Source: a virus (taxonomy: Duplodnaviria; Heunggongvirae; Uroviricota; Caudoviricetes). Taken from it: DNA of 16,518 bases. The position numbers were made by a program, and so were the translations under genes. The stretch lies in IMG/VR virus record IMGVR_UViG_2563366924_000007; one strand, 5' to 3'. Of the stretch, positions 1-15,360 are shown in pieces (positions within the stretch are counted from its first letter, which is position 1; each line of letters starts with the position of its first letter). Below the pieces are notes generated by a model, which saw only the letters and a program-made list of their open reading frames with translations, was not told the origin of the DNA and did no database searches.

Positions 1-192
1 TCAACGCCTTAATTTATCTGGCTTTCGCCACTGATAGGGAGGCGCTTCCATGCGCTGGCGGTGCCGCTGTTTAGCGGCCAACACCATAGCTGTTTTAGTG
101 CGGATTACCAGCTTATCCTGCCCGTTAAGTTCATGGCCCAATTGACGAGCCATTTCGTCGATCACAGACTCAATTTTCTTGTGTTTGAGCAT
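1..192 (-). CDS. Hypothetical small basic protein downstream of terL (about 63 aa)
   Basis: ORF track 1..198; ATG at 192..190 sits 2 nt after the terL stop; stop TGA at 3..1. No motif recognised. Confidence 0.4.
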   Translation of the reverse strand: MLKHKKIESVIDEMARQLGHELNGQDKLVIRTKTAMVLAAKQRHRQRMEAPPYQWRKPDKLRR

Positions 193-194
193 AT

Positions 195-1856
195 TCAAAT
201 CCCGGTAAATTCGGCAAGTCGCTGCTTATGGCTATCGCTCATATCGAAAGCAAAATCCTCATGCTCAGCCTGGAAGGTGCCGAACGCCATCAGCGCAGAT
301 ACCGCAGGATCTATCTTGTTAGAGGATTTCTTTTTGTTGGGCTTAATGTTGGCGTTAGCGTCGGACTCCATCACCACGTTACCAATCGCCCAGGCCAGAA
401 CCGGATCGCCCCGATGGCGCACCACCTTGCGGTTTACGAACACCTCAAAGGATTTCGCTACCGGACTGAATTTAAGATAGGTTTGCGGGAACGGCTCCAC
501 ATCGAGGCCCGCCCCCTGCAGCTGGGTGCGTAGATGCGTGGCGTTCCACGTATCAAAACCCACCAGCCGAATGTTGAATGTTTCGGCATCACGCAAAATA
601 TCGTCACGGATGCGGTCATAGTCGATACAGTCACCGGGTGTGGTGCGTATCCAGCCCGCTTTCACCCACTGGCGGTAGATGGCGCGGTTTTTGTTGGCGA
701 CGTTAAGCAACTGTGCTTCCGGCAGATAATGACGGGTCAGGAGCCTGATCTCCCTGTCGAACGGGAAAGCGTAGCTCACGCTGGTGATATCGCTGGTAGA
801 GGACAGGTCAAACCCGGCGTAGCACTCCCTTCCGGCCAGATCTTCTTCGGTATAGTCGAGTGCACAGGCATCCCATGCACCGGCACCCATCCACGGCGTG
901 GAGCCCTGACACCAGATATTGAAACGTTTGGTCAGCATTTCCACCCACTGCGACGGTATGCCCCGTGCTTTCTGGATGGTGGATTCCAGTTTCGCCGCGT
1001 CAACGGATACATGCAGGTTAGGGTTGGCCTTGATCCACATTTCCGGCTGTTCAACCTCGCTTTCGTCGTCCAGCTCGTAGATCAGGACAAACAGCGAATC
1101 GTTGCTCTCTTCCCCGGCCAGAATCTGGCAGCAGTAGTCGTAATGCTGTTTGCAGGCGGAGACAACATTACTCCCGGCGGTGGTAATGGCGAACAGAACC
1201 GCCTCAGGACGTGCGCCCATGCCCAGCTCAAGCGCGGAATAAACGCCGTTATCCGGGTGAAGATGGTACTCATCGACAATCGCCAGGCTGGGGTTAGTGC
1301 CCTCAATGGTAGCCGCCTTCGCCGCCAGTGGCTTTAACAGGCTGTTGCTCTTCGGAAAAATGACCTTGTGCGCCTGAATATTGACGCGCTTTTTCAGCGG
1401 TTTTGACAGCAGACACATCTGGCGGGCATCGTCGAACACGATTCGGGCCTGATCCCGGCTCACCGCCGCCGTGTAGATATCCTGCTGGCCCTTCTCCATC
1501 ACCAGAAACCAGTTAGCCAGCATGGCGGCCACAGTGGATTTGGCATTCTTGCGCGGCACCTCAATAAACGCGCTGCTGTACTTCCGGCGGCCTGACTCCC
1601 TGACTTTAAAGCCCAGCAGGTTAGCAAAGGCGAACTGCTGCCACGGCTCCAGCTCGATTGGCTGGCCGCGCAGCGGGCCTTTGACGTGTGGACAGAGCCG
1701 GGAAAAGGCAATAAACCGCTCTACGGTCGCCGTATCGAACTCATAACGGGGGTCATTCAGGTCTGAAAAGTACCTCTCCACGGCCTGTTTTACACGCTTA
1801 CAGGCCGGAATTTCGCCCGTTTTTATCGCGTTTGCGTACTCATTCCAGACGGTCAA
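195..1856 (-). CDS. terL: Phage terminase large subunit
   Basis: 553 aa; P-loop-like segment IEVPRKNAKST, Walker B-like LAIVDEYHL, size and position after terS. Only in-frame start that includes the P-loop is TTG at 1856, preceded by a GAGGAAG Shine-Dalgarno-like sequence. Confidence 0.88.
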   Translation of the reverse strand: MTVWNEYANAIKTGEIPACKRVKQAVERYFSDLNDPRYEFDTATVERFIAFSRLCPHVKGPLRGQPIELEPWQQFAFANLLGFKVRESGRRKYSSAFIEVPRKNAKSTVAAMLANWFLVMEKGQQDIYTAAVSRDQARIVFDDARQMCLLSKPLKKRVNIQAHKVIFPKSNSLLKPLAAKAATIEGTNPSLAIVDEYHLHPDNGVYSALELGMGARPEAVLFAITTAGSNVVSACKQHYDYCCQILAGEESNDSLFVLIYELDDESEVEQPEMWIKANPNLHVSVDAAKLESTIQKARGIPSQWVEMLTKRFNIWCQGSTPWMGAGAWDACALDYTEEDLAGRECYAGFDLSSTSDITSVSYAFPFDREIRLLTRHYLPEAQLLNVANKNRAIYRQWVKAGWIRTTPGDCIDYDRIRDDILRDAETFNIRLVGFDTWNATHLRTQLQGAGLDVEPFPQTYLKFSPVAKSFEVFVNRKVVRHRGDPVLAWAIGNVVMESDANANIKPNKKKSSNKIDPAVSALMAFGTFQAEHEDFAFDMSDSHKQRLAEFTGI

Positions 1857-2196
1857 GCTCGTCTTCCTCTTCCGTTTCTACCGGATTCCGGCGGCGGCTC
1901 ACCGGATCAAAGCCCAGCAGCGACGACATTTTAATCATGATTTTTTCAGCATCGGCCTTTGCACTCAGTGCCGGATTTCGGCTCTCGCCACCCTGGCTGT
2001 TAACAATGCTGAACCCACGGCTGGCAAGGTCTTCCACGGCTTTGCGGTACATCGAATAGTTGACGCAAAAAAGCTCAAGGTTGTTCCAGTCGGCGGGTGT
2101 CAGATCGCCACGCTCGGCCAGTTGCTTCGCTTTCGCTTTCCACTGCTGCGCGGCTAACTCATCAAGGTAAGCTGGCGGTTTTGGTGGTCTTGCCAT
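1840..2196 (-). CDS. terS: Terminase small subunit (P27-like)
   Basis: Translation from ATG at 2196 (MARPPKPPAYLDELAAQQWKAKAKQLAERGDLTP...) resembles P27-family small terminases; the longer track ORF to 2364 is an alternative-start extension. Stop overlaps the terL start. Confidence 0.8.
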   Translation of the reverse strand: MARPPKPPAYLDELAAQQWKAKAKQLAERGDLTPADWNNLELFCVNYSMYRKAVEDLASRGFSIVNSQGGESRNPALSAKADAEKIMIKMSSLLGFDPVSRRRNPVETEEEDELDRLE

Positions 2197-2249
2197 AAAA
2201 ATTTCTCGTTTCCATCGCGTTTTATTTTCAAAAAAATCACCGTGCGTAA

Positions 2250-2320
2250 AAATTTGAGGGGGCGGGCGGTGCCTGGCACCTTGAGGTTTGTCCTGAAAAC
2301 CTCCCCCACCCCGTCCATGC
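2250..2320. other. Candidate cos/packaging site in the HNH-terS intergenic region
   Basis: Perfect 13-bp palindrome GGTGCCTGGCACC (2268-2280) flanked by a G-tract (GAGGGGGCGGGCGG) and a C-tract (CCTCCCCCACCCCGTCC), in a roughly 275-bp non-coding gap just upstream of terS. Confidence 0.3.
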
Positions 2321-2471
2321 GGCCTGTCAGCGGTTGCGGAAGCATTCCCGCAACTCCCGTTCACGCTCGCTCATACGCTGCACAGGCTGGCGCTCATTGC
2401 GTCTGCTTCGCCCCTGCATGAAGCCATCACGGCAGCGCATCAATGATCGGTACAGATTCACCACGTCTTTC

Positions 2472-2915
2472 TCATTCATTTCTGCCCTCATACATCCAGT
2501 CATTGCGATGGGCTGCACGCTCTTCCTGCTCACGGTACAGCCCTGCTTTGCGCTTCGCTTTGGTGGTTGGGTCTTGCTGTGTGGTCTTCTGGTTATGATG
2601 CGCCTGGCATAACGGCTGGTGATTCCACTCAGGCCAGAACAGAACGTCATCACCGCCGTTGATAGGGATGATGTGATCGACAATCTTTGCAGGAACGTAG
2701 AGGCCCAGCTTCTGACACTCAACGCACAGCGGATAGCGCTTAAGGTACTGAGCGCGGTACTTCTCCCATGAGGCTGAATAACCACGGGCGCGACGGTGGC
2801 CGCGTCTGGCATCCTCTGCCCGCCACGCTTCCCGCTTATGCTCGTCACACTTGCCAGACTTCACCCGTTTATTGCATCCCGGCTCTGTGCACCGGCGTAG
2901 TGGTTGCCACGGCAT
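2472..2915 (-). CDS. HNH endonuclease (packaging-associated)
   Basis: Cys/His-rich HNH-type motifs (CVECQKLG, HIIPINGGDD, NHQPLCQAHHNQK); ATG at 2915 overlaps the upstream stop; sits immediately before terS. Confidence 0.85.
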   Translation of the reverse strand: MPWQPLRRCTEPGCNKRVKSGKCDEHKREAWRAEDARRGHRRARGYSASWEKYRAQYLKRYPLCVECQKLGLYVPAKIVDHIIPINGGDDVLFWPEWNHQPLCQAHHNQKTTQQDPTTKAKRKAGLYREQEERAAHRNDWMYEGRNE

Positions 2916-3208
2916 CAGTACACCCCCACATCTCGGTAGACAGACCACAACGCAGAGACAGCCATCGGTATCTCTTTGGCGTCGGTGTCACCAATCATCG
3001 TGCGGTACTCGTACAGCTGAGAGACGTACATCAAACAGCCGATCTTGATAGCCGGGGTGAACTCCAGACCGTTATCAAATCGCTTGCCGATATGCTTCTG
3101 GCAGACCTCCAGCGCAGCTTCGATGTACGCCTGTATCAACGTATCTTCGTAATCATCATCAATACGGCAATGCAGCTTTGCTTCTTCCAGACCGATTAAC
3201 TCACTCAT
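2915..3208 (-). CDS. gp6-like head-tail connector / DNA-packaging protein
   Basis: Translation from ATG at 3208 (MSELIGLEEAKLHCRIDDDYEDTLIQAYIEAALEVCQKHIG...) matches the gp6-like connector pattern; GGAGG Shine-Dalgarno upstream; the track ORF to 3460 is an extension. Confidence 0.75.
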   Translation of the reverse strand: MSELIGLEEAKLHCRIDDDYEDTLIQAYIEAALEVCQKHIGKRFDNGLEFTPAIKIGCLMYVSQLYEYRTMIGDTDAKEIPMAVSALWSVYRDVGVY

Positions 3209-3539
3209 TGAAAATGCCTCCCTTGCACAGCAGCTCAAGCCGGGTGTGATCCACATCAGGAATGACGGCCACGATGCCGTAAACCTGCCCCCGGACGTTT
3301 GGCGAGCGGTACAGAATGCGGTTTGCGGTGGTGATATCGTCGCGGTAGCGCGTCCAGATTCGCACAGTGGCTTCGGAGTAAAGCGCCCCGGAAGACATGC
3401 GCTCACGCCCGCTGATAGCACGAATTTCAGCCCAGACTGAGGCAAGGTCAGCCCATTCATAGATAACCTGACCAGTCGGGTCGCGGTGAGATTCCGACTT
3501 CTGAAAGGTAACGCGGCGTTTCATCTTTCCGGCTCTCAT
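3201..3539 (-). CDS. Head-tail adaptor / head closure protein
   Basis: 112 aa with the pattern typical of this family (VWAEIRAISGRE...IWTRYR...LELLCKG); ATGA overlap with the portal stop. Confidence 0.75.
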   Translation of the reverse strand: MRAGKMKRRVTFQKSESHRDPTGQVIYEWADLASVWAEIRAISGRERMSSGALYSEATVRIWTRYRDDITTANRILYRSPNVRGQVYGIVAVIPDVDHTRLELLCKGGIFNE

Positions 3540-4771
3540 ACGTCACCGTCCTTGCTGTCTTTACTGATCTTCACTTCCTGCTTCCATGCCTGACTGAACT
3601 CGTCACCACCTTCACGCGGCGGCATACCCTCACGCTCACGGGCTTCGTTCGGGTTCATAATCCCGTTCTTGATACCGCGCTCATAAGTGGCGTAACGCTC
3701 GGTAGGTGTGGCACGGAGAAGGTCAGCGGAGTCAAACTCCACCAGATAGCGGGTTCCCGGAACGGGAGAGGCCACCAGCAGCGCGGATTTAATTTGTTGC
3801 TCGAAGTTCGCCAGCCACGGACGCATCGTCATGGTGAGAAATGCGCGGCTCGCCTCACTAAAATTGCTGTAGGTGCTGTTGCTGTATTCCTGCAAGAAGA
3901 TGGGAGAAACGTTAAACATGCGGGCAATGTCTTCAATGGAGAAGCGCCGGGAGGCCAGCCACTCAGCATCCTGATTGCTCATGCCAAGTTGCTTATAGTC
4001 CATGCCACCTTCAAGGATCGGCGTTTTCCCGGCATTTCTGGCACCTTTGTAACGTTCCAGCGCATCCATTGCCTGTTTGCCCTTCACGCTGTCGAGCCAT
4101 TCTTTAGTTACCACTACCCCCGAAGCCATCATCCCATCTTTCATAATGCTGGCACCGTGGCGCTGTTGTGCCAGACCTAACCCCAGCGCCTCACGGCAGA
4201 TGGTGATCGGCGAACGCCCCAGAAAACCATCATCGGTGGAGTAACGCAGGTGCAGAATCTCTTCCTGCAGGTAGGTGCGCACTGCCCCGGTAAACGGTTC
4301 AGTAACGGTGTATTTGTACTTATGCTGGCCGATACGCTCAGGAACAACCGCCCCCGGCGCATACGGATGCAGGGATTGCGGCTGGCCGTCACGGCCCCAC
4401 TGGATCACCGCATAGGCGTTACCATTCAGCAGGCAATGACGCATCATCGTGCGCTTGAACTGGTAAGGCGTCTGACAGTCGTTCGGTTGCTCGTTAAGGA
4501 GAAAATCCACCGGGTGATTGCTTAGCCACTCCCGCGCTTCTCGGCCGTTATCGTTGCGCACGCGGTAGAGGTAGCAGGGCATTGTTGCCACTGCCTCGCT
4601 GATAACTGATATGGCGTTCATGACCGCCGGCAGAGATTCCGCAGTACCGGCAGACACATATTCGCCTGATCCGGTATTTGGAATCCCTGCCATCGCCAGA
4701 AACTCATCAATCGTCATGCTGCGCTGTTCGGATGGCTCAGATTTACGGCCAAAAGGCCAGATATTCCACAT
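3536..4771 (-). CDS. Phage portal protein (HK97-type)
   Basis: 411 aa; position between protease and adaptor; sequence character of HK97-family portals. Confidence 0.88.
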   Translation of the reverse strand: MWNIWPFGRKSEPSEQRSMTIDEFLAMAGIPNTGSGEYVSAGTAESLPAVMNAISVISEAVATMPCYLYRVRNDNGREAREWLSNHPVDFLLNEQPNDCQTPYQFKRTMMRHCLLNGNAYAVIQWGRDGQPQSLHPYAPGAVVPERIGQHKYKYTVTEPFTGAVRTYLQEEILHLRYSTDDGFLGRSPITICREALGLGLAQQRHGASIMKDGMMASGVVVTKEWLDSVKGKQAMDALERYKGARNAGKTPILEGGMDYKQLGMSNQDAEWLASRRFSIEDIARMFNVSPIFLQEYSNSTYSNFSEASRAFLTMTMRPWLANFEQQIKSALLVASPVPGTRYLVEFDSADLLRATPTERYATYERGIKNGIMNPNEAREREGMPPREGGDEFSQAWKQEVKISKDSKDGDV

Positions 4772-4772
4772 A

Positions 4773-5333
4773 TCACAGCCCCGCTAAGTCAGCCCAGCGT
4801 CGGCGGTTATCACCAGCACGGCGCAGTTCAGGATGTTGGGAGAACAGAGAACGGTGCGCAATTTCCACGCCGGACTCAGGGTAAGCAGGCATAGAAGTAA
4901 CGGTGATCTCCCGCAGCTCGGCAGCGGTAACAGTGCGAATATACGGTGTAGGAGTAATATCCCAGGACTCTTTCAGCGCACGGAATCCGAAGCTCATGCC
5001 GGAAATGTCTCCACGCTCCACCAGCTCCAGCACATCATTGCCAAGTTGGGTGTTTGGCGGGGTCAGCTCGAAACGCAGCCCGGTATCATCTTCGGACAAC
5101 ACCAGCGTGCCGGATTTGGTACGCCCCAGCAGTTGGGTATAGTTATGCTCGTACAGTGCACGCACATCGCTACCGGATGCCAGGCTGTCTTTAAACGCCC
5201 CCGGCGCAAACTGCTCGCGGAACTCATCCCAGATCACCTCTGACAGGCTGTTCCAGCGCACGGCATAGCCCACCAGCTTTTTGTTGCTGGCGCTCAGTTC
5301 GGAGGTACGGATTTCAAAATCGATTGTTTTCAT
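4773..5333 (-). CDS. Prohead maturation protease (HK97-type)
   Basis: 186 aa; resembles HK97-family prohead proteases; GGAG Shine-Dalgarno before the ATG at 5333. Confidence 0.85.
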   Translation of the reverse strand: MKTIDFEIRTSELSASNKKLVGYAVRWNSLSEVIWDEFREQFAPGAFKDSLASGSDVRALYEHNYTQLLGRTKSGTLVLSEDDTGLRFELTPPNTQLGNDVLELVERGDISGMSFGFRALKESWDITPTPYIRTVTAAELREITVTSMPAYPESGVEIAHRSLFSQHPELRRAGDNRRRWADLAGL

Positions 5334-5384: not shown

Positions 5385-6551
5385 TCAGGAACCGGAACCG
5401 GAAAGCTCAAGCACCTTGATGGCGTTGGAGTCCACCACACCACCGCCTAGGTATTTATCGGTGTGCACCTTGTAGAAACCAGGTTCGGTGATGTTGTCGG
5501 GGCGGGTACGCACGCCAGTGGTGTGATCCACGATGAAGTAACCGCGCTTAAAGTCGCCGACTGCCAGGAACGCTTCACCCGCAGCCGCATCAGGCATGGT
5601 TTCCAGATATTGAACCGGACGGCCAAGGAGGGTATCGGGAGAGTCAGCGACGAGACGATCACGCCAGATGTAATCCCCGTTGCCGTTTTTCAGCTTTTGC
5701 AGCGTAGCGGCAGTGTTGGAGTTCATCACCCATACGGCATTTTTACGGTATTTGGCTTTCAGCTTATACAGCAGGTCGATCAATCCATCAGAGGAAACGG
5801 CAGCAGCTTCCATTTTCTCCAGCGTTCCGAACGGACGGGTTTTATCGCTGGTGGCCGCACGCGGATAGGACAGGAACCCTTTGGATTTTTTATCACCGTC
5901 GCCGTTCACAAAGTCGGTTTCTTCGGTAGCAGTGAAGGTGTCGGTGATTTCGGAAGACAGCCAACCCAGAATATCAACTTCGGAGAAGTCGAGAATTTCC
6001 TGAGTGGTTTTCGGGTAGGCGTAGATCGGGTTGAGTTTGATATCAACGCGCTCCATCTTAGGTGTGCTGGTTTCGGTACGCGCTTCGCCTTCGGTGCCGC
6101 GCTTAACGGTAGTGCCACCCACTGATACCAGCTTCTGGTATTCGTTGGTTTTGGTGGTCTTCACCGTAGCGATGGAGCGCATAACGCTGTCATCCTGCAA
6201 CTGGCGCATGATCTCTTTGTCCAGCTCAGGGATAACGGTATAGCCGCCGTCAGCCTGCACCAACGTGGAGAGAGAGCGGGTATCGCCGGTCATGATGTAG
6301 TGGCGCAGCTCATCGTTGCTTACACCTTTACCTTCAACAGAAGTACCAGGCAGATTGCGCTGATCGTCGGCGACGGCCTCAAGGCGGGTAATTTCAACTT
6401 CAAGCGCATCAGCCTGGGCGCGGAGTTCATCGAACTGCTTGCCCTCTTCATCGTTCAGGCTTCGCTTTTCGCTGTCAGCTTTTTCCAGCATGGAACGCAT
6501 CTGGGTTTTGAGTGCGGCTTTCTGCTGGCGTAATTCAAGTAATTTCTTCAT
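5385..6551 (-). CDS. Major capsid protein (HK97-fold) with N-terminal coiled-coil delta domain
   Basis: From ATG at 6551 (MKKLLELRQQKAALKTQMRSMLEKADSEKR...) a charged coiled-coil N-terminus then an HK97-like capsid body; the track ORF to 6668 adds an implausible N-terminal extension. Confidence 0.88.
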   Translation of the reverse strand: MKKLLELRQQKAALKTQMRSMLEKADSEKRSLNDEEGKQFDELRAQADALEVEITRLEAVADDQRNLPGTSVEGKGVSNDELRHYIMTGDTRSLSTLVQADGGYTVIPELDKEIMRQLQDDSVMRSIATVKTTKTNEYQKLVSVGGTTVKRGTEGEARTETSTPKMERVDIKLNPIYAYPKTTQEILDFSEVDILGWLSSEITDTFTATEETDFVNGDGDKKSKGFLSYPRAATSDKTRPFGTLEKMEAAAVSSDGLIDLLYKLKAKYRKNAVWVMNSNTAATLQKLKNGNGDYIWRDRLVADSPDTLLGRPVQYLETMPDAAAGEAFLAVGDFKRGYFIVDHTTGVRTRPDNITEPGFYKVHTDKYLGGGVVDSNAIKVLELSGSGS

Positions 6552-6575
6552 GGAGTGGTTTCCGTAACAATTAAC

Positions 6576-6672
6576 GTTGAGACGTGAAACCAGCGCTTGG
6601 AGGGATGTCCACCTGGAAAGGAAACCGTCGCAGAACGGGAAAGAACCAGGTGGACAGTGGCGGCTCACGTCT
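6576..6672. promoter_or_regulatory. Nested inverted repeats in the capsid-operon leader/promoter region
   Basis: Perfect 11-bp inverted repeat TGTCCACCTGG (6606-6616) / CCAGGTGGACA (6646-6656) inside an outer 8-bp inverted repeat AGACGTGA (6580-6587) / TCACGTCT (6665-6672). Confidence 0.35.
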
Positions 6673-6813
6673 GAGTGCCACTCTTCAAGATATACATAAT
6701 AATCAATGAGTAAACACCTCTATGTTGTCGCAAATAGCAGCGAAAACAGGAGAACAAATAATTTACAAAGTTTGATAATATGAACGGGAAAAACACCACT
6801 TCTGGGGGATTTT

Positions 6814-7326
6814 ATGGACTTCGATTTTGATGATATGGCATACCCGGATATTTTTTTAATTTCCGGCGAGGAGTTTAAAGGAAGCCGGAACACAGGAAAA
6901 AATCAGGTAGATATCCCGTTTACTGACGAACCGCAAATTGAATTGGGTGATATTCTGATTCAGAAGATTGGAAGCCGCGAGTTAAGCCTTAAAGTTGTCG
7001 ATCTTTCAATATCAAAGAATGGAACGCTGAACGTAGGTACAACGCATCCTCACTTACTTACGTTATCCGTAGAGAATCTTTCTTCCGACGCACACAGGAC
7101 AGCAAAGAGCATGAATACTTTTAATATTGGCTCCGTCAGTGGTGAGCAAGTTCAAATAGGTGAAAGTAATCATATGCTGGTGAATATCAGTATTACTGAA
7201 CTTGTCGAGAAAGTAGCCAAATCTGGCGATCCACAGGCTAAATCAATGTTGAAACAGTTACTGGAAAATAGCACCGTTGCCAGTATCGTTGGCGCTGGCG
7301 CTTCCGCGCTGTTAGGTCTGCTTTAA
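6814..7326 (+). CDS. Hypothetical protein, AT-rich, with C-terminal hydrophobic Gly/Ala-rich tail (170 aa)
   Basis: Clean ORF with a GGGGGA Shine-Dalgarno-like sequence before the ATG; opposite orientation to neighbours; C-terminus VASIVGAGASALLGLL looks like a membrane anchor. No recognised domain. Confidence 0.6.
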   Translation: MDFDFDDMAYPDIFLISGEEFKGSRNTGKNQVDIPFTDEPQIELGDILIQKIGSRELSLKVVDLSISKNGTLNVGTTHPHLLTLSVENLSSDAHRTAKSMNTFNIGSVSGEQVQIGESNHMLVNISITELVEKVAKSGDPQAKSMLKQLLENSTVASIVGAGASALLGLL

Positions 7327-7372: not shown

Positions 7373-7708
7373 TTATTCTTTATCCAGCCCCCACTGATAG
7401 AAAGCCCAGCTTGCCGTTGATTGTGCGCTATGGATAGCGTTCTCAAGGCCAGAGGTTGGGTACGACAAATCAGCCGCCATCCTCTGTAGAAGATCGAGGT
7501 AAGCGCTGGCGTCTTTCGACAACTCTTGCCCCCCTTCTTCCAGCCCAGACTGGTACGATTCCAGATCAAGTTTTTCAGAAGTGACAAAAGCGCTCAGAGC
7601 CAGAAAATCCGTCACCGTAATCTCATCTTTATTTGAAAGCTCATCAACGGCGCTGTAGAGAAACTTAACATCGCTCATATGCCCGTTATCTTTGCCAATC
7701 AGTTTCAT
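7373..7708 (-). CDS. Hypothetical small acidic protein (111 aa)
   Basis: ATG at 7708 preceded by AAGAGG at good spacing; acidic composition; sits just downstream of the iteron origin. No recognised domain. Confidence 0.6.
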   Translation of the reverse strand: MKLIGKDNGHMSDVKFLYSAVDELSNKDEITVTDFLALSAFVTSEKLDLESYQSGLEEGGQELSKDASAYLDLLQRMAADLSYPTSGLENAIHSAQSTASWAFYQWGLDKE

Positions 7709-8050: not shown

Positions 8051-10186
8051 TTATTCTTCTCCATCTTCCGCAACCTGGTGAAGCACATAAACGTTAATTT
8101 GACGCCCATCAATACGCGGGGATTTCTGCTGGTATCCACGCCCGCTGGACGGCTCAGAAAGCAAGCCAGCAGCGGCAAGCACGCGGGCAAACTGCCTGGC
8201 GTTAAAGCCCTGAGCTATCTCCTTCTCAAACGTTGCGGGGAACGTATAGAACACCAGCGGCGCATCATCATGGCTGCTTTTGCGCTTTCGATACCCGGCC
8301 AAATCGCGAATTGGCATACTGGACGGATCATAGGGCAACGGTGCAAAGCGGCTTAAACCGTAGGCATTCAGGAACGCCTCGCACTGCTCGATGATCTGCT
8401 GGTGCTCTTTGTTACCCGTGCCGAACTCTTTCACCCAGGCGTTAAAGCTATGCTGGATAGCGTCACGGCTGGCCTGTTCACTCCATCCGGTGATTGATGC
8501 ACCAGTTACCAGCGCGGCTTCGAGGATTGCAAAACGTTCAGCCACGCGGTGTACCTGCTCACCGTAGTCAGCCGGGATGAGGCCGCGCCAGCGCGTTTGC
8601 GCGTCACGCACCGCCTGTTTAGCCTCCTGCTGGTTAGCCGCCAGCCATTTAACCCACTCACGCCCCGCCGCCCCGTGGTTATCAATCCAGGCTTCTTTCA
8701 GTGCGTCAGCATGAGCCTTGCCGTTTGGCAGACCGTTAAAAGCCGTCGATTTCTCCATAGGGATGTTGAGCAAGCGCACCAGTTGGCCCGCTTTCACTTT
8801 CAGCCCACCAGCAGCCAGGAAGGTTTCAATATCCATTTCCCCGGTGCTGATCGCCACAGTGCGCCAGCGTTTAAGCTCCCGATTGCCGCCCTCTTTGGCT
8901 CCCTGCAACTTTCCGGCACCGTTAAACAGGGTGTAGGCAGACGTAGCAACATCTTTGGCACTGCTGCCCTGTCCTACCTCATCAAGCGGTAACAGGCTGT
9001 CGTTATGCGCCTCCGCTTCGTTTGCTATGCCAAGCGCAGTACCGTACCAGGTAAGCCGCAACGCATCAGGCTCACCCCACAGGCTGCTCGCAATATTGGC
9101 GGTAGTGGTCTTACCGGCGCTCGACTGCTCGAACAAATGGACGCCGAAACCATCAGCCCCCACCAGGCCAATAAGCGGCGCGGATAATGCCGCTGCCACG
9201 CCCAGCATCATGGACGGATTGCCCCCGGCCAGACGGGCGACGGAATCCCGCCAGGTGGCAGCAGTACCAGCAATGGCATACCCGGAAGATGCAGCGCTGC
9301 GACCGTTAAAGAGAATGGGCGTCTCTGGATCACCAATCACTTCACCATCAGGCATGATATATGCGCCGTGATGCCAGCCAGTGGTATGGGTGATAATCCA
9401 TTCCCGATCAGTGCCGCTTTGCTGCAACCAGTCGGCCAGAATCGCCCGGAATGTGCTTTTAGTGGTCACATTCACCCCACCAGCTTTAAGTGAGCGCCAG
9501 CCGTCGCGCTCACCGATATCAGCACAGGGGATCGCCCTGGTAATATCTTCATGGCCACGCGGCGAACGCCAGCGCAAAACAAGATAGCGCTCTGCCCCGT
9601 CACTACCGGAGCCGACCACCTCAAGAGGCGAGCACAGCCACGTTTCGTTATTGATGATCTCGCCACTATCCTTGTCCACCTTTGGCGTGATCCAGTACAG
9701 GCCATCGCTCCGGCTCTCCACGCGGGGTTTGAGTTCATCGCCCGGTTCAGGCTTTGGCTCCCGTTTTTTTACAGGCAGGTTCACCACAATGCTTTCCCCG
9801 CGTTCGGCCTCTTCTTTGAGACGTGGAAGCCTGCCCGTCCAGTCCTCCTTCGGCTGAGGCTCAAACATGCCATTAAACAGCCTGGCCTCTTTCACATCCG
9901 CCAGCGCCAGTTTGGTTGCGATAGTGCTTATCTGCATTTCGGAAAGTTCGCCAGCGCGGATCACACGAACACTGCGACGGCCGTTATCAACAATGTTTAA
10001 CCGTTCCAGTTCCGCAAGTTGCCTTTTACCCAGATAAACAGGCGGTACATCATCCCATGCCCTTTTACCTTCGCTCTCGATCCAGTGCTGCACATGCGAA
10101 TAGGCATCTTCACCCGCAAAGATAATCGCCTCGGTAAATTTATCTTTCGGCAGGAATTTAATGTTCGGGGCATTCTTCATCTTCAT
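8051..10186 (-). CDS. Replication initiator/helicase-like P-loop NTPase (satellite Rep type)
   Basis: 711 aa; Walker A-like SSAGKTTT and Walker B-like LLPLDEVG; adjacent to iterons; start translationally coupled to the upstream small ORF. Confidence 0.7.
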   Translation of the reverse strand: MKMKNAPNIKFLPKDKFTEAIIFAGEDAYSHVQHWIESEGKRAWDDVPPVYLGKRQLAELERLNIVDNGRRSVRVIRAGELSEMQISTIATKLALADVKEARLFNGMFEPQPKEDWTGRLPRLKEEAERGESIVVNLPVKKREPKPEPGDELKPRVESRSDGLYWITPKVDKDSGEIINNETWLCSPLEVVGSGSDGAERYLVLRWRSPRGHEDITRAIPCADIGERDGWRSLKAGGVNVTTKSTFRAILADWLQQSGTDREWIITHTTGWHHGAYIMPDGEVIGDPETPILFNGRSAASSGYAIAGTAATWRDSVARLAGGNPSMMLGVAAALSAPLIGLVGADGFGVHLFEQSSAGKTTTANIASSLWGEPDALRLTWYGTALGIANEAEAHNDSLLPLDEVGQGSSAKDVATSAYTLFNGAGKLQGAKEGGNRELKRWRTVAISTGEMDIETFLAAGGLKVKAGQLVRLLNIPMEKSTAFNGLPNGKAHADALKEAWIDNHGAAGREWVKWLAANQQEAKQAVRDAQTRWRGLIPADYGEQVHRVAERFAILEAALVTGASITGWSEQASRDAIQHSFNAWVKEFGTGNKEHQQIIEQCEAFLNAYGLSRFAPLPYDPSSMPIRDLAGYRKRKSSHDDAPLVFYTFPATFEKEIAQGFNARQFARVLAAAGLLSEPSSGRGYQQKSPRIDGRQINVYVLHQVAEDGEE

Positions 10187-12032: not shown

Positions 12033-12060
12033 GGCAGCTCTGCAAAGCTGCCTTTGTTTT
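12033..12060 (+). terminator. Intrinsic terminator after the RHH gene
   Basis: GGCAGCT-ctgcaa-AGCTGCC followed by TTTGTTTT; abuts the ant stop codon on the other strand. Confidence 0.55.
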
Positions 12061-12838
12061 ATTCAGCGTCAGCATTCGGCACCTCCGGCAATACACCACC
12101 AGCGATCAGTCTTTTCGTTAACCACTGCTCACCTTTCCCTGTCAGCATCGTTGTGAATGAGGCTCTTACCTCGCCATTCGTTTCATACGTTCCCTGGCGA
12201 ACGGCAAAATAACCGCTATCGATATAACGCTGCATAGGCAGGTTGTGGCGCTGGCCGCCATTGATGAGAATCCCCTGTTGCCTCATCCAGCCGAATAATT
12301 TGATGGGGCCAAGCCCTACGGCTTTGGCATAGTTTGGAATGGAAATCCCCTTACTGATCTCTGCCACGCGATCAGCAAAATCAACTTTTGGCGCAGCGGC
12401 CACCAGCCGGTTTTCAAGTTCGCTTGCCTTTTCGGCAAGATCAGCGGCAAGGCGCAGGGCTTCCGGTAACGTCTGGGGGATATTAGCGGCGGCTTTTGCC
12501 TGGCGTTCGCAGTTGATGAAGTAGCGGCGTACCTCCCGCCCTTTTTCGTTGCGCTCAACCATTGCCAGCTCTTTACCCATATCAATAGTGATCAGGTAGT
12601 CATGTTCCATCTGCTGCCGAGATTTTGCGCTCGCCCGTTTTGGCGTGCTCAAACTTTCAACAATGATGTAATCGACTCCAGTAGTGAAGCCGTACTGGCT
12701 AATACGCCCTTTAATCCAGTTGGTGAAATCACGCCCAACGCCGAGAAACGCATGGAGTTTTTTTGCACTGACCAGCGATACCGTCACGCCGCCAATATTT
12801 CCGGGGTTAACCGGAACCAGCTCATTTAATTTTTGCAT
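12059..12838 (-). CDS. Phage antirepressor (AntA N-terminal plus KilAC C-terminal domain)
   Basis: N-terminal HDYLITIDMGKELAMVERNEKGREVRRYFINCE and a C-terminal KilAC-like region. Confidence 0.8.
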   Translation of the reverse strand: MQKLNELVPVNPGNIGGVTVSLVSAKKLHAFLGVGRDFTNWIKGRISQYGFTTGVDYIIVESLSTPKRASAKSRQQMEHDYLITIDMGKELAMVERNEKGREVRRYFINCERQAKAAANIPQTLPEALRLAADLAEKASELENRLVAAAPKVDFADRVAEISKGISIPNYAKAVGLGPIKLFGWMRQQGILINGGQRHNLPMQRYIDSGYFAVRQGTYETNGEVRASFTTMLTGKGEQWLTKRLIAGGVLPEVPNADAE

Positions 12839-12846
12839 AGCGCCCC

Positions 12847-13131
12847 CTACGCAGGTTTACGGTTGTAAGGGGTATTGACGTTCTCAACAGCAGGTGGATT
12901 GCGAACCCACCAAAGAACATCTGACAGAAGCCATGCGCAACTATTACGGCCAAAGTGGCAGCGTGGCGGGAATTTACCTTCGTTCTCCATATACCAGCGG
13001 GTGGAACGGGAAAGGCTGGTTATTTCGAAGCATTCACTTTCACGAATACGGCGATCAAACTTAATGCCATATTCTGCGAGAATGGTGCGGCGTTGTTCAG
13101 GTGTTGGCGGGGTAAAAAGAGTATTTGACAT
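12847..13131 (-). CDS. alpA: AlpA-family transcriptional regulator / excisionase-like protein
   Basis: HTH segment ITSLSRSTRWYMENEGKFPPRCHFGRNSCAWLLSDVLWWV; strong GGAGG Shine-Dalgarno before the ATG at 13131. Confidence 0.7.
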   Translation of the reverse strand: MSNTLFTPPTPEQRRTILAEYGIKFDRRIRESECFEITSLSRSTRWYMENEGKFPPRCHFGRNSCAWLLSDVLWWVRNPPAVENVNTPYNRKPA

Positions 13132-14042: not shown

Positions 14043-14133
14043 ATCGTCACCCTCAACGCCCCTAATAACTTGCGAGCCAGGCGGGTAGGGTTTCCCGCTT
14101 TTCGGTTGGCCGACCTAGACCCGCAATATCAGT

Positions 14134-15360
14134 TTAATCTCTATTCGCTACAGGTAACAGAACAACATTTTGATGATTACCCGCAAGAAGTTCTAAGCGG
14201 TCATACCACTTGTTCAGCGCGTCCAGCTTCTCCGGCAAGTACAGACTACGGTTATAAATCGCCATAACTCCCGGCATTGAATGGCCCAGCAACTGTTCAA
14301 CAACGTGCGGAGCGATACCCATATTATTCATATGCGTTGCAAGCGTTCGCCGTAGATCATGCAATGTCCAAGGTTCAGAATGCCCCAGTTTTTTATAAAC
14401 ACTACGGCCCCACTGGCTAACCGCTTCGCTATTCTTCACAACCCCAAGAAGGTAGCCGGATGATTTTGTTTCATCGTGGAGCATTTCAATAAATGAACGC
14501 ATCGCCTCCGGAACTGGACGCACAATCTTTTCACCGCCTTTACTATGCGCTTTTGGTACTGTCCACATCCACGCCTCCATATCCCATTCGGCCCACTCTG
14601 ACAATCTGGCCTCCTGGGTGCGGCAACCAAACAAAGTAGTGATCCTGAGCAAGTTTGTGTAGTAAGGCAGAAAAACATCGCCGGACGATATAGCAGCCCA
14701 CAATCCCCCAACCTCTTTATCTTTCAGTACACGATCTTTTTTCGCCTGCTTTTTACCAACATCGGGAATACTCAAATCTTCAAGGGCGGTACTGACGGCG
14801 TAACGGCGAACGCGGCAGAATTTCAGAGCCTGCTTACACATCTGGAATACATAACCAGCAGCAACCGGCGTTTTCTTTTTCATCCTGTCAAAGCAGTCAA
14901 GCCAGTAACGGGTTTCGCAGTCAGCGAGCGCCATTTTCCCAATATAAGGGTAAATGTGTTTGCGCAGCTCCGCTTTATGCCGCTCAACGTTCGCACGGTT
15001 TTCTTCCGCATATTCGCGTATCCAGTATTCGATAGCTTCCTGCACCGTGACCGGTTTAAGCGTTTCCTGAGTAGTTAGCGCCAACTGGTGCTTTGGGTCT
15101 TTACCAGAGGCCAGCCACTGACGACATTTATCACGCGAGGAACGGGCCTCTTTGAGACTCATATCAGGGTAGCGCCCCAGAGTCAGCCGATGCAGCTTCT
15201 GCCCGTCGAGTCGGTAAGTAAACACCCAGCTAATGCCACCAGCTTTCGTTACCTTAGCGCTCAACCCGGCACCATCAGCATAAAACTCAATCTTACTGGC
15301 CGGGATGCCATGTAATCCCTTTAACTTCCTGTCGCTCAGTTTGTTAAGTTCGCCAGCCAT
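14134..15360 (-). CDS. int: Tyrosine site-specific integrase (P4-like)
   Basis: 408 aa with catalytic-domain pattern (R in FGCRTQEARL, HDLRRTLATH, LLGHS, Y in AIYNRSLY) and an N-terminal arm-binding-like region. Confidence 0.9.
   Translation of the reverse strand: MAGELNKLSDRKLKGLHGIPASKIEFYADGAGLSAKVTKAGGISWVFTYRLDGQKLHRLTLGRYPDMSLKEARSSRDKCRQWLASGKDPKHQLALTTQETLKPVTVQEAIEYWIREYAEENRANVERHKAELRKHIYPYIGKMALADCETRYWLDCFDRMKKKTPVAAGYVFQMCKQALKFCRVRRYAVSTALEDLSIPDVGKKQAKKDRVLKDKEVGGLWAAISSGDVFLPYYTNLLRITTLFGCRTQEARLSEWAEWDMEAWMWTVPKAHSKGGEKIVRPVPEAMRSFIEMLHDETKSSGYLLGVVKNSEAVSQWGRSVYKKLGHSEPWTLHDLRRTLATHMNNMGIAPHVVEQLLGHSMPGVMAIYNRSLYLPEKLDALNKWYDRLELLAGNHQNVVLLPVANRD

Follow-up and report, generated by a model that had tools for sequence, protein, structure and literature searches.

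The two nested inverted repeats that precede the capsid gene of the phage satellite analyzed here are parts of a conserved structured RNA, apparently not described before, with which the message of the capsid operon is predicted to begin. This leader combines four helices, strong conservation, the covariation of one base with two alternative partners and a promoter-like element at its upstream end. As two of its conformations exclude each other, and one of them would free the ribosome-binding region, it is most likely a two-state translational switch. We accordingly favor, with a probability of approximately 0.55, a cis-acting 5' RNA that would control translation of the capsid gene and be off by default.

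Genomic context and spread of the leader

The window, i.e. the entire stretch of 16,518 nucleotides that was analyzed, is a capsid-forming PICI (cf-PICI) phage satellite. Pfam and Rfam searches recovered the gene order int, int-alpA RNA, AlpA and DUF927 primase, and, on the minus strand, capsid, protease, portal, connectors, TerS and TerL; the RefSeq annotation of an E. coli locus 98% identical to the window (L001) matches this arrangement and has the same capsid start. The packaging operon is approximately 6 kb long (Table 1), and its capsid gene shows the weakest Shine-Dalgarno (SD)-antiSD match of the operon genes (-3.5 kcal/mol). The cf-PICIs make their own heads, with the helper phages supplying only tails. 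The timing of head-gene expression to helper infection, as supposed in the preliminary description, can be regarded as conjecture: published work goes no further than to state that overexpression of alpA promotes reproduction of EcCIEDL933, in a strain used for its purification. This element was not seen as a carrier of the leader among the E. coli matches listed. The literature we searched yielded no description of how the cf-PICI head/packaging operon is controlled.

A repeat search recovered both inverted repeats of the preliminary description, namely an 11-nt perfect repeat with 29 nt between its arms and an 8-nt perfect repeat enclosing it. With the capsid gene on the minus strand and its ATG at 6551, they lie 29-121 nt upstream of the capsid start, as had been claimed. 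Among 2000 dinucleotide-preserving shuffles of the intergenic region (6552-6813), 0.45% contained a perfect repeat of at least 11 nt with a spacer of up to 100 nt, and 17.7% one of at least 8 nt. The inner repeat is unlikely to have arisen by chance; the outer repeat by itself is not significant, its support coming solely from conservation and covariation in relatives. The minus-strand RNA of 6552-6700 folds with an energy of -53.9 kcal/mol (z = -5.2), a stability matched by none of 200 shuffles.

A covariance model (R1) built from 49 non-redundant relatives matches the window over its full length (127.5 bits, E 6e-32). The leader exists in approximately 110 distinct versions from at least 16 enterobacterial genera, and was found in at least 120 viral contigs, always directly 5' of the capsid start, and in about 153-172 of 5426 complete E. 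coli genomes. In a set of contigs with one genome per species it precedes 30 of the 80 capsid homologues. Homologous capsid operons manage with a 40-nt unstructured leader, and capsid expression can therefore do without the element. Homologous capsid genes are also preceded by a second leader family, unrelated to this one, in which a 5' segment likewise pairs alternatively with SD-adjacent sequences. In Xenorhabdus members of this second family we considered GGCGGTAG as a possible RfaH ops element and discarded it, as it forms the 5' strand of a hairpin whose pairing is kept via G·U in one locus (L079); the leader in the window has no ops-like sequence. A cmscan of both strands of 6450-6900 against Rfam 15 with permissive filters returned no matching family at E<=10, and no Rfam riboswitch family matched the leader at this threshold. 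The literature searched contained no paper with the leader sequence and none discussing a capsid leader in PICIs.

Table 1. Positions of the leader, its paired elements and associated genes in the window
Feature	Position	Strand	Remarks
Conserved upstream box TTTGTAAATTATTTGT	6754-6769	minus	candidate activator site
Predicted -35 element TTTACT	6709-6714	minus	16-nt spacer to -10; conservation
Predicted -10 element TATCTT	6687-6692	minus	ends 5 nt before P1; conservation
Whole capsid-operon leader RNA motif	6549-6681	minus	133 nt, P1 first base to AUG; covariance model R1
P1, 5'-terminal hairpin GUGGC-A-CUCA-GACG-UGAG-CC-GCCAC	6657-6681	minus	25 nt, at predicted transcript start
Long-range 5' arm AGACGUGA (outer repeat)	6665-6672	minus	repeat search; covariation
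P2 5' arm (inner repeat, distal arm)	6646-6656	minus	repeat search; covariation; RNAalifold de novo
P2 3' arm (inner repeat, proximal arm)	6606-6616	minus	repeat search; covariation; RNAalifold de novo
C/U-rich single-stranded linker UCCCUCCAAGCGCU	6592-6605	minus	predicted unpaired
P3 helix, GGUUUC(A)CGU (6582-6591) with ACGGAAACC (6557-6565)	6557-6591	minus	ends 5 nt before AUG
Long-range 3' arm UCACGUCU (outer repeat)	6580-6587	minus	overlaps P3 5' strand
Capsid start codon AUG	6549-6551	minus	RefSeq start in L001; Pfam Phage_capsid
Capsid gene, HK97-type major capsid	5385-6551	minus	Pfam Phage_capsid E 5e-68; RefSeq L001; heads packaging operon
Protease	4773-5333	minus	second in packaging operon; Pfam, RefSeq L001
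Portal	3536-4771	minus	after protease in packaging operon; Pfam, RefSeq L001
TerL	195-1856	minus	packaging operon extends through TerL; Pfam, RefSeq L001
int-alpA RNA (Rfam RF02996)	14059-14125		cmscan; sole Rfam family passing in whole window

Paired elements and their alternatives

In the 49 relatives the nested structure is 92% paired, with double changes at 15 pairs; its covariation score was reached by none of 500 shuffles, and slid controls were 36-42% paired. De novo prediction with RNAalifold recovered P1 and P2, with 12 of 19 pairs compensatory. Mean pairwise identity amounts to 97% in P1 and 99% in the 3' block, as against 55% at third codon positions of the capsid gene. The P1 hairpin consists of an outer stem of 5 bp, an inner stem of 4 bp and a GACG loop, and is asymmetric, its stems being separated by an internal loop of 1 nt versus 2 nt. 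Its sequence is identical in 92 of 99 distinct leaders, all nine pairs are 100% paired, and compensatory double changes are seen at three of them (G1:C25 to A:U, G4:C22 to A:U and A10:U15 to C:G). The preliminary description overlooked this hairpin, which reaches past its right-hand coordinate, as well as the P3 helix adjoining the start codon.

P2 adjoins P1 at a distance of 0-3 nt, the two together spanning approximately 76 nt, and is free to vary in sequence as long as pairing is kept. In the 49 relatives 10 of its 11 pairs show changes on both sides; the arm sequences change completely, their spacing varies from 29 to approximately 50 nt, and in all 49 representatives the segment forms an extended predicted hairpin whose apical part varies. 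The linker that follows is predicted to be unpaired in essentially all of these representatives, and is always pyrimidine-rich and variable in sequence.

P3 covers positions about -6 to -15 before the AUG, including a weak GGA triplet resembling a Shine-Dalgarno sequence, and in the relatives always ends about 3-7 nt before the AUG. Its 3' strand occupies -15 to -7 in the window, with a comparable distance to the AUG in all relatives. Its nine pairs are 97% paired in the 49 relatives; the changes are solely one-sided, with 10 alignment cells becoming U·G or G·U, no double compensatory change was found in this set, and the de novo RNAalifold prediction did not include P3. Opening positions -18 to +12 costs 8.5 kcal/mol (median of the ensemble costs), as against 0.8 kcal/mol in homologous capsid genes with a short leader (p = 1e-13), and these calculations show the ribosome-binding region to be occluded in the predicted ground state.

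The fourth helix corresponds to the outer repeat. Its 5' arm is made up of A10, which is the last base of the P1 5' inner strand, the P1 loop and three bases of the P1 3' inner strand. The eight pairs are 98% paired, and their formation is mutually exclusive with both P3 and the P1 inner stem. U15 has two alternative partners, namely A10 in P1 and, in the long-range helix, A120 (column 120 of alignment A2, equivalent to leader position 97). In a variant lineage all three bases change together (C10, G15 and C120), converting U15:A120 to G:C. Of the distinct sequences, 101 follow this U15 rule in the canonical form and 11 in the variant form, and none is discordant, even though P2 and the 3' region have diverged within the variant group. 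Change of A12 to G, observed in two backgrounds, gives a G·U pair in the long-range helix. A120 is bulged out of P3, so that its covariation has no other explanation; covariation of U15 with both of these partners is the mark of a two-state switch. Further variants were sought in viral contigs with loose patterns, which returned mostly chance matches; the true leaders all fitted the U15 rule. The covariation evidence for the long-range pairing consists of one triple change, probably a single evolutionary event, and two G·U substitutions. The leader displays two of the features expected of a two-state translational riboregulator, i.e. a helix covering the ribosome-binding site and an exclusive alternative pairing with covariation.

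The conformation with P1 and P3 has a calculated energy of -22.1 kcal/mol, versus about -17.3 kcal/mol for the P1 outer stem with the long-range duplex, and the open state is less stable by at least 5 kcal/mol. Based on these observations we propose that transcription would start at or beside the first base of P1 from the TTTACW-16-TATnTT promoter, and that the resulting RNA would fold as P1, P2, the C/U-rich single strand and P3. In this closed state, the predicted thermodynamic ground state and putative off form, P3 would bury the segment before the capsid AUG with its very weak SD-like triplet. In the alternative state the P1 loop and the 3' side of the P1 inner stem would pair with UCACGUCU, thereby opening the inner stem, blocking P3 and freeing the ribosome-binding region. 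We infer that translation is the controlled step, that this is the direction of the switch, and that some trigger exists, which by stabilizing the long-range pairing or destabilizing P1 or P3 would turn translation on. The long-range helix and the P1 outer stem could also coexist as a static pseudoknot, with no switching.

Pairing alone would not require P1 and the 3' block to be nearly invariant, and this excess of conservation implies sequence-specific recognition by a conserved partner. As a tentative extension of the switch, which we regard as rather unlikely, the leader might be a sensor RNA of a novel class, in which P1 together with the 3' block would recognize a small molecule or a conserved protein of the host or the packaging module, binding of which would flip the closed form to the long-range-paired one, allowing the satellite to gate capsid translation after induction. 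We looked for the specific partner of P1 among the early proteins of the satellite and rejected these, since none is universally present among the elements with identical P1: an AlpA homologue (42-100% identity) occurs in 28 of 35 and the primase in 7 of 35, and the two adjacent ORFs in 16 and 20 of 96. The terminase subunits do accompany identical P1, with TerS in 75 of 76 and TerL in 76 of 76 cases (median identities 95% and 93%).

Such co-occurrence of an invariant 25-bp sequence with very conserved TerS and TerL would also fit a packaging (cos) or replication signal located by chance upstream of the capsid gene. We hold this to be very improbable: a DNA signal leaves the P2 covariation, P3 and the fixed position adjacent to the AUG unexplained, and a better cos candidate is available. 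In HNH-dependent systems cos usually lies in the gap between the HNH and terS genes. In the window this gap (2197-2330), which is 4.3 kb away from the leader, contains a conserved G/C-rich stretch and the palindrome GGTGCC-A-GGCACC, with approximately 88% identity across 104 loci.

Promoter-like element and rival readings

A sigma-70-like element of the form TTTACW-16 nt-TATnTT precedes the leader in all 127 distinct upstream regions. The -10 hexamer is conserved as T (100%), A (100%), T (93%), any base, T (98%) and T (100%), and the TTT of the -35 element is 98-99% conserved at a fixed position; in a generic promoter scan the -10 element fell below threshold. This universal conservation supports the earlier suggestion that the head operon has a promoter of its own. 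In 65 of the 127 relatives an intrinsic terminator lies just upstream, and its T-tract doubles as the T's of the -35 element; in the window a divergent gene is present at this position instead. Further upstream, TTTGTAAAT (up to one mismatch) starts 88 or 89 nt before P1 in 110 of 127 distinct relatives. This box also precedes capsid genes with other leader types and occurs once in the window; its repetition at other promoters (e.g. alpA) was considered and found to be not above chance.

Both repeats lie downstream, not upstream, of the promoter-like element. The preliminary description had offered activator sites, repressor sites or an RNA leader as explanations of the repeats, of which the RNA leader is supported, both repeats being base-paired parts of a conserved leader with compensatory changes. 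Sites for a dimeric protein binding palindromes in the DNA, with P1 as a lac-type operator near +13 and a second AGACGTGA 85 bp downstream for looping, are disfavored and in our view distinctly improbable. P1 does occupy +1 to +25 of the predicted promoter, AGACGTGA is present twice in inverted orientation with both copies changing together, and a change in homodimer specificity would also give compensatory changes in a palindrome. Binding sites of this kind are nevertheless disfavored because P1 is asymmetric, the sequence and arm spacing of the inner repeat change as described above, the changes confined to one side of P3 or of the long-range helix permit wobble pairing solely in the capsid-sense RNA, and no early-region protein is universally present with identical P1. 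The strand assignment from wobble pairs is weakly informative: the sense strand has 38 G·U and U·G pairs versus 29 A·C and C·A, and among the 49 sequences the sense orientation of the P2 segment is the more stable one in 31 (p = 0.03), with no significant difference in stability between sense and antisense for the leader as a whole.

If transcription starts as predicted, P1 would begin within 1-2 nt of +1 with essentially no unpaired 5' tail. A 5'-terminal hairpin of this kind stabilizes mRNAs such as ompA, and P2 is a long near-perfect duplex directly adjoining P1. Hence the leader might act constitutively, with the hairpin shielding the late message from 5'-end-dependent decay or with P1/P2 serving as an RNase III site, and no switching. 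Such a function in stability or processing appears unlikely, since a protective hairpin needs only pairing and P1, unlike the pairing-only P2, is conserved well beyond it; such a function would also fail to explain why the P1 loop and the P3 bulge covary and why the ribosome-binding region is occluded.

Three further candidates were examined. An intrinsic terminator or attenuator was rejected, as no helix runs into a U-tract: P1 leads directly into P2, UCCCUCC comes after P2 and ACUCCAUG after P3, and a terminator scan flagged only the small apical hairpin of P2 (6638-6625; tail UUUCCUUUCC), which is unconserved in relatives. A leaderless upstream ORF starting from GUG at leader nucleotide 1 was also dismissed, both its frame and its stop being unconserved (36 codons in the window, and a stop inside P2 in 27 of 49 representatives). 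The search for a trans-acting partner RNA found only chance 9-10-mers complementary to the leader elsewhere in the window.

These findings provide the head/packaging operon with three conserved features, namely a promoter-like element, an upstream box and a constrained leader RNA with two folds. The 25 nucleotides of P1 are better conserved than the coding positions of the capsid across several families of Enterobacterales, including Enterobacteriaceae, Erwiniaceae, Yersiniaceae and Morganellaceae. If the switch model is true, capsid production passes through a post-transcriptional checkpoint not sought so far, and the natural triple covariation offers a ready-made mutational test of it. Should that model prove incorrect, the motif would still be well supported as a candidate RNA family not known before, and it is also a compact marker for this satellite lineage.

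Comparison with known systems

The put RNAs of phage HK022 suppress downstream terminators and pauses via the zinc-binding domain of the RNA polymerase beta' subunit. An analogous role, in which nascent P1 and P2 would bind RNA polymerase to resist pausing or termination across the ~6-kb operon, seems unlikely to much the same degree as a role in message stability. The layouts are alike, both comprising two adjacent stem-loops of ~70-76 nt right after the promoter of a long phage-type operon: putL is ~70 nt with two stem-loops just downstream of PL (PMC9378689), and P1 and P2 extend over ~76 nt from the predicted transcript start. In both, the strong conservation of the sequence points to an interaction with conserved host machinery; the invariance of P1 over at least 16 genera would suit a partner such as RNA polymerase, as would the lack of an early satellite protein co-conserved with P1. 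However, the HK022 immunity region, in which putL and putR lie, resembled the leader neither in sequence nor in structure: the best hit of model R1 in HK022 27.6-30.1 kb with filters off scored 1.7 bits (E 2.2), and blastn of the put region at word size 7 gave only chance matches of 7-12 nt. No convincing intrinsic terminator that would need to be bypassed is predicted inside the operon on the minus strand, and homologous operons have the short unstructured leader. Moreover, the capsid leader reaches as far as the start codon and includes a third helix and an alternative pairing, for which put has no need. A put-like role also leaves the invariant 3' block and P3 next to the AUG, as well as the long-range covariation, unexplained.

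The int-alpA RNA in the same window is likewise a conserved structured RNA of PICI-type elements; it differs from the capsid leader in lying between int and the regulatory genes, in its structure and sequence, and in being represented in Rfam.

The preferred reading, a translational switch, finds its closest parallels in phage and bacterial mRNAs with alternative folds at the ribosome-binding site. The lambda cIII mRNA, from the work of Altuvia, Oppenheim and co-workers in the late 1980s, reportedly adopts two exclusive 5' conformations, with the ribosome-binding site occluded or exposed, which set its translation rate. It resembles the capsid leader as a phage-type mRNA with mutually exclusive 5' folds, one occluding the ribosome-binding region. 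In cIII, however, the coding region takes part in the alternative pairings, and the balance responds to RNase III binding and to temperature, whereas the competing partner in the capsid leader is an invariant 5'-terminal hairpin ~85 nt upstream; the two show no sequence relation. The E. coli rpsO (S15) operator alternates between hairpins and a pseudoknot at the ribosome-binding site, and a protein recognizing one form controls translation. The capsid leader shares the hairpin/pseudoknot-type alternatives at this location and has no sequence similarity to rpsO; the rpsO pseudoknot is the repressed (entrapment) form that includes the SD and AUG, whereas the long-range helix of the capsid leader would free the ribosome-binding region. 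Similarly, in the leader of the MS2 maturation gene, studied in the van Duin laboratory, the 5' end is said to pair over a long distance with the ribosome-binding region. Long-distance pairing of the RNA 5' end would thus govern translation in both cases, closing the SD in MS2 and opening it in the capsid leader. Finally, in tisB, according to what is reported from the Wagner laboratory, ribosomes reach a structured ribosome-binding site by way of a single-stranded standby site upstream of it, next to a 5' stem-loop. The same layout is seen in the C/U-rich linker that separates P2 from P3, and its composition and predicted single-strandedness suggest that it may likewise serve as a standby site.

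The conserved leader of the capsid gene

Both inverted repeats of the preliminary description were recovered as perfect repeats by a repeat search, the inner of 11 nt with arms 29 nt apart and the outer of 8 nt enclosing it. Because the capsid gene lies on the minus strand and has a RefSeq-supported ATG (annotated identically in a 98%-identical E. coli locus), they are situated 29-121 nt upstream of its start, in agreement with the distance first given. In 2000 dinucleotide-preserving shuffles of the intergenic gap between the capsid gene and a divergent 170-aa ORF (6552-6813), repeats of at least 11 nt arose in 0.45% and of at least 8 nt in 17.7%; only the inner repeat, and not the outer, is improbable on its own. 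The RNA folding z-score is -5.2 for the capsid-sense strand and -5.6 for the opposite strand.

An alignment of capsid-upstream regions from four divergent E. coli satellites, and a wider survey that took in 80 capsid homologues (one genome per species) as well as at least 120 viral contigs, uncovered a single conserved module that always lies directly before the capsid ATG. It corresponds to a 133-nt RNA containing helices P1, P2 and P3, with the inner repeat as the closing stem of P2. The outer repeat defines a long-range helix, whose first strand combines A10 (the last base of the P1 5' inner strand), the P1 loop and three bases of the P1 3' inner strand, and whose second strand overlaps the P3 5' strand. 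The module is present in 30 of the 80 genome loci and about 153-172 of 5426 complete E. coli genomes; its genera are Pluralibacter, Kosakonia, Citrobacter, Enterobacter, Kluyvera, Rahnella, Pantoea, Pectobacterium, Leclercia, Erwinia, Winslowiella, Rosenbergiella, Serratia, Providencia, Proteus and Xenorhabdus. A covariance model built on 49 non-redundant leader sequences scored the window at 127.5 bits and had no matches in capsid loci bearing other leader types.

Features of the window (leader positions, marked nt, are in RNA sense on the minus strand of the window, with nt 1 = 6681)
Feature	Position	Strand	Remarks
Integrase	14134-15360	-	
int-alpA RNA	14059-14125	-	Rfam RF02996, full-length, 58.1 bits, E 5e-10
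AlpA	12847-13131	-	
KilAC/AntA antirepressor	12059-12838	-	
DUF927 primase	8051-10186	-	
Second ORF adjoining leader	7373-7708	-	phrog_7232
Divergent 170-aa ORF	6814-7326	+	phrog_5789
Upstream box	6754-6769	-	TTTGTAAATTATTTGT; about 88 nt upstream of P1
Predicted -35	6714-6709	-	TTTACT
Predicted -10	6692-6687	-	TATCTT
Leader	6681-6549	-	
P1	nt 1-25	-	GUGGC-A-CUCA-GACG-UGAG-CC-GCCAC
P2	nt 26-76	-	
Linker	nt 77-90	-	C/U-rich single strand
P3	nt 91-100 with nt 117-125	-	GGUUUC(A)CGU with ACGGAAACC
Long-range helix	nt 10-17 with nt 95-102	-	AGACGUGA with UCACGUCU
AUG	nt 131-133	-	capsid start codon
Inner repeat	6606-6616 / 6646-6656		
Outer repeat	6580-6587 / 6665-6672		
Capsid	5385-6551	-	Pfam Phage_capsid, E 5e-68
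S78 protease	4773-5333	-	
Portal	3536-4771	-	
Head completion and connector proteins	3201-3539 and 2915-3460	-	
HNH-terS gap	2197-2330	-	GGGGTGGGGGAGG ... GGTGCC-A-GGCACC-GCCCGCCCCC
P27-type TerS	1840-2196	-	RefSeq-equivalent start; listed ORF reaches 2364
TerL	195-1856	-	

In a MAFFT alignment of the 49 representatives, 92% of the cells of the nested structure (P1, P2 and P3) are paired, with two-sided changes at 15 pairs; the covariation score was matched by none of 500 column shuffles, and controls in which the partner was slid by 1-3 columns were only 36-42% paired. P1 is 100% paired with 3 compensatory pairs, and P2 is 88% paired with double changes at 10 of 11 pairs, its sequence being almost wholly different among subtypes (UGUCCACCUGG/CCAGGUGGACA versus GCCGCCUGAC/GUCGGGCGGC versus GGCCGUUAAGUC/GAUUUAACGGCC). 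P3 is 97% paired and shows one-sided changes only, mostly to U.G. Unguided RNAalifold recovered P1 and P2 and not P3, and in all 49 leaders the P2 segment, folded alone, forms a long hairpin and leaves a pyrimidine-rich tail unpaired after it. The leader structure is well supported. Its assignment to the capsid-sense strand is mainly based on the promoter, on wobble changes within P3 and on the proximity of the AUG; overall wobble counts, and the stabilities of sense compared with antisense folds, favour this strand only weakly. Regulator-binding sites and an RNA leader had both been proposed for the repeats, and the covarying helices and their place downstream of the predicted promoter speak for the latter. 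DNA operators are disfavoured by the asymmetry of P1, the variable arms and spacing of P2, the wobble-compatible one-sided changes and the lack of a DNA-binding protein co-conserved with the leader. A 10-nt exact direct repeat, GAACGGGAAA on the plus strand (6633-6642 and 6782-6791), which occurs once in apical P2 and once shortly before the divergent ORF, is probably due to chance.

Alternative pairing and access to the capsid start codon

The long-range helix is 98% paired in the 49 representatives. In a variant lineage from Serratia, Leclercia and related viral contigs, P1 takes the form GUGAC-A-CUCC-GACG-GGAG-CC-GUCAC and the downstream block reads UUUCCCGUC. Here the change of nt 15 from U to G is matched by A to C both at nt 10, its P1 partner, and at nt 97 (alignment column 120), its long-range partner; nt 97 is the bulged base of P3, and nothing else would account for its change. 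Among all loci compared, 101 distinct leaders are canonical, 11 are variant and none shows a mixed combination, despite divergence of P2 and the 3' portion inside the variant group. Additionally, nt 12 changed from A to G in two different backgrounds, with the pairing kept as G.U. Since one base cannot hold two partners simultaneously, both pairings must count, and such double covariation is the hallmark of an RNA that can take two competing folds. This two-state character is well supported. The predicted ground state is the closed form, P1 plus P3, with an approximate energy of -22.1 kcal/mol, as compared to about -17.3 kcal/mol, before any pseudoknot penalty, when the P1 outer stem is combined with the long-range duplex. 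Strictly, the covariation could instead reflect a pseudoknot in which the P1 inner stem is open and the outer stem is kept.

In all relatives the P3 3' strand ends a few nucleotides (about 3-7) before the AUG, and of all genes in the operon the capsid gene shows the poorest SD-antiSD match (-3.5 kcal/mol), formed via a GGA within P3. The median ensemble cost of exposing the region from -18 to +12 is 8.5 kcal/mol in the 49 leaders, whereas it is 0.8 kcal/mol in 32 homologous capsid genes with a short A-rich leader (Mann-Whitney p = 1e-13). By taking up the P3 5' strand the long-range helix would free the ribosome-binding region. Because the closed ground state buries this region and the long-range helix frees it, we propose that the leader acts as a translational switch whose default state is off; a trigger is presumed, and a link to helper infection is hypothetical. 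A conserved upstream ORF in the leader was excluded.

An unrelated leader family of about 135 nt, which precedes the ATG of homologous capsid genes, is found in Xenorhabdus and Photorhabdus (loci L032, L051, L052, L060, L066, L069 and L079). Its 5' CAUGUAGG is predicted to pair alternatively with CCUGCAUG or with CCUACAUG beside a GAGG SD, which points to the same logic in unrelated sequence. The GGCGGTAG in this family, although similar to the RfaH ops core, forms one strand of a hairpin and was rejected as such an element. A further, distinct and conserved hairpin, GGCTCACTCTGCCGTGAGCC followed by GAACGG...CTATATATACTAAGGCGGGATAA, occurs in at least 17 distinct viral contigs (including L334, L343, L398, L412 and L415). 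In Xenorhabdus kozodoii (L035, 1441-5108) there are two tandem capsid genes, the first with a short A-rich leader before it and a 147-aa ORF after it, followed by the structured leader (3221-3364, 129.7 bits), the second capsid gene and a protease.

Promoter, gene neighborhood and potential partner

In a comparison of 127 distinct upstream regions, a hexamer at positions 11-6 nt in front of P1 has the composition T (100%) A (100%) T (93%) n T (98%) T (100%), with a TTT(A/T)C(T/A) hexamer 16 nt further upstream; the conservation of this predicted -10/-35 pair supports the earlier expectation that the head operon has its own promoter. The hexamer positions place the predicted start at or within 1-2 nt of the first base of P1, and the 1:25 pair covaries, which suggests that nt 1 belongs to the transcript. 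The associated claim that upstream genes are terminated applies to 65 of the 127 relatives, in which the T's of the -35 also mark the exact end of an intrinsic terminator, about 32 nt ahead of P1 (L023, L071 and L009 among others), that insulates the operon from upstream transcription, but not to the window, which has the divergent ORF instead. The position and invariance of the leader would also suit a put-like antitermination RNA, a proposal that fails because similarity to put was not found, the operon has no predicted terminators and the link to the AUG is left unexplained. In 110 of the 127 regions a box, TTTGTAAAT, is located 88-89 nt ahead of P1; it also precedes capsid genes with other leader types, has no second copy elsewhere in the window, and may serve as an activator site or belong to an upstream promoter.

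The window represents a capsid-forming phage-inducible chromosomal island (cf-PICI) or an element closely related to one. Besides the leader, this satellite has another structured RNA, the int-alpA RNA, immediately downstream of the integrase gene. The two ORFs adjoining the leader belong to PHROG families without assigned function, have no Pfam or PADLOC match and, with homologues in only 20 (6814-7326) and 16 (7373-7708) of 96 related elements, constitute a variable accessory slot. In the cf-PICI papers searched, the flanks of the packaging operon are described as variable, and its promoter and leader are not mentioned. Some satellites appear to be filed as phages: a complete cf-PICI-like segment including the leader (PQ569648.1, 93181-105292; L444) ends the 106.5 kb record of 'Klebsiella phage P12620-1', and the satellite-sized 'Escherichia phage vB_KppS-Ant' (LR881103.1, 16.5 kb) bears a related leader. 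That the leader is itself a cos site is unlikely, given the conserved G/C-rich stretch and palindrome in the HNH-terS gap, the usual location of cos in HNH-dependent systems; this gap, with about 88% identity over 104 related loci, is a likely cos region.

Mean identity among the 49 representatives reaches 97% in P1 and 99% in the GGUUUCACGUC block; in the first 120 nt of the same capsid genes codon positions 1 and 2 are 83.5% identical and position 3 is 55% identical. As P2 shows that pairing needs less conservation, P1 and this block imply a sequence-specific partner or tertiary structure. A purely protective 5' hairpin fits the 5' position only, and clashes with both this constraint and the covariation. 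Among elements with the leader, an AlpA homologue is found in 28/35 (42-100% identity) and the primase in 7/35, the capsid in 150/151, protease in 144/144, portal in 128/130, connector in 76/76, TerS in 75/76 and TerL in 76/76. Because none of the early-region proteins is universal, any such partner would more likely come from the host or from the packaging module than from among the early regulators.

Relationship to known leaders

No Rfam family matches the leader, and a literature search found its sequence in no paper and no paper on such a leader. It shares layout features with HK022 put (PMC9378689). Further such features are common to it and to MS2 long-distance control and the tisB standby site. 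In its predicted mode of action it is most reminiscent of the lambda cIII mRNA and the rpsO operator, which are two-state translational leaders. It is a member of none of these families, and we regard it as a candidate new RNA family that belongs to a familiar type of regulator.
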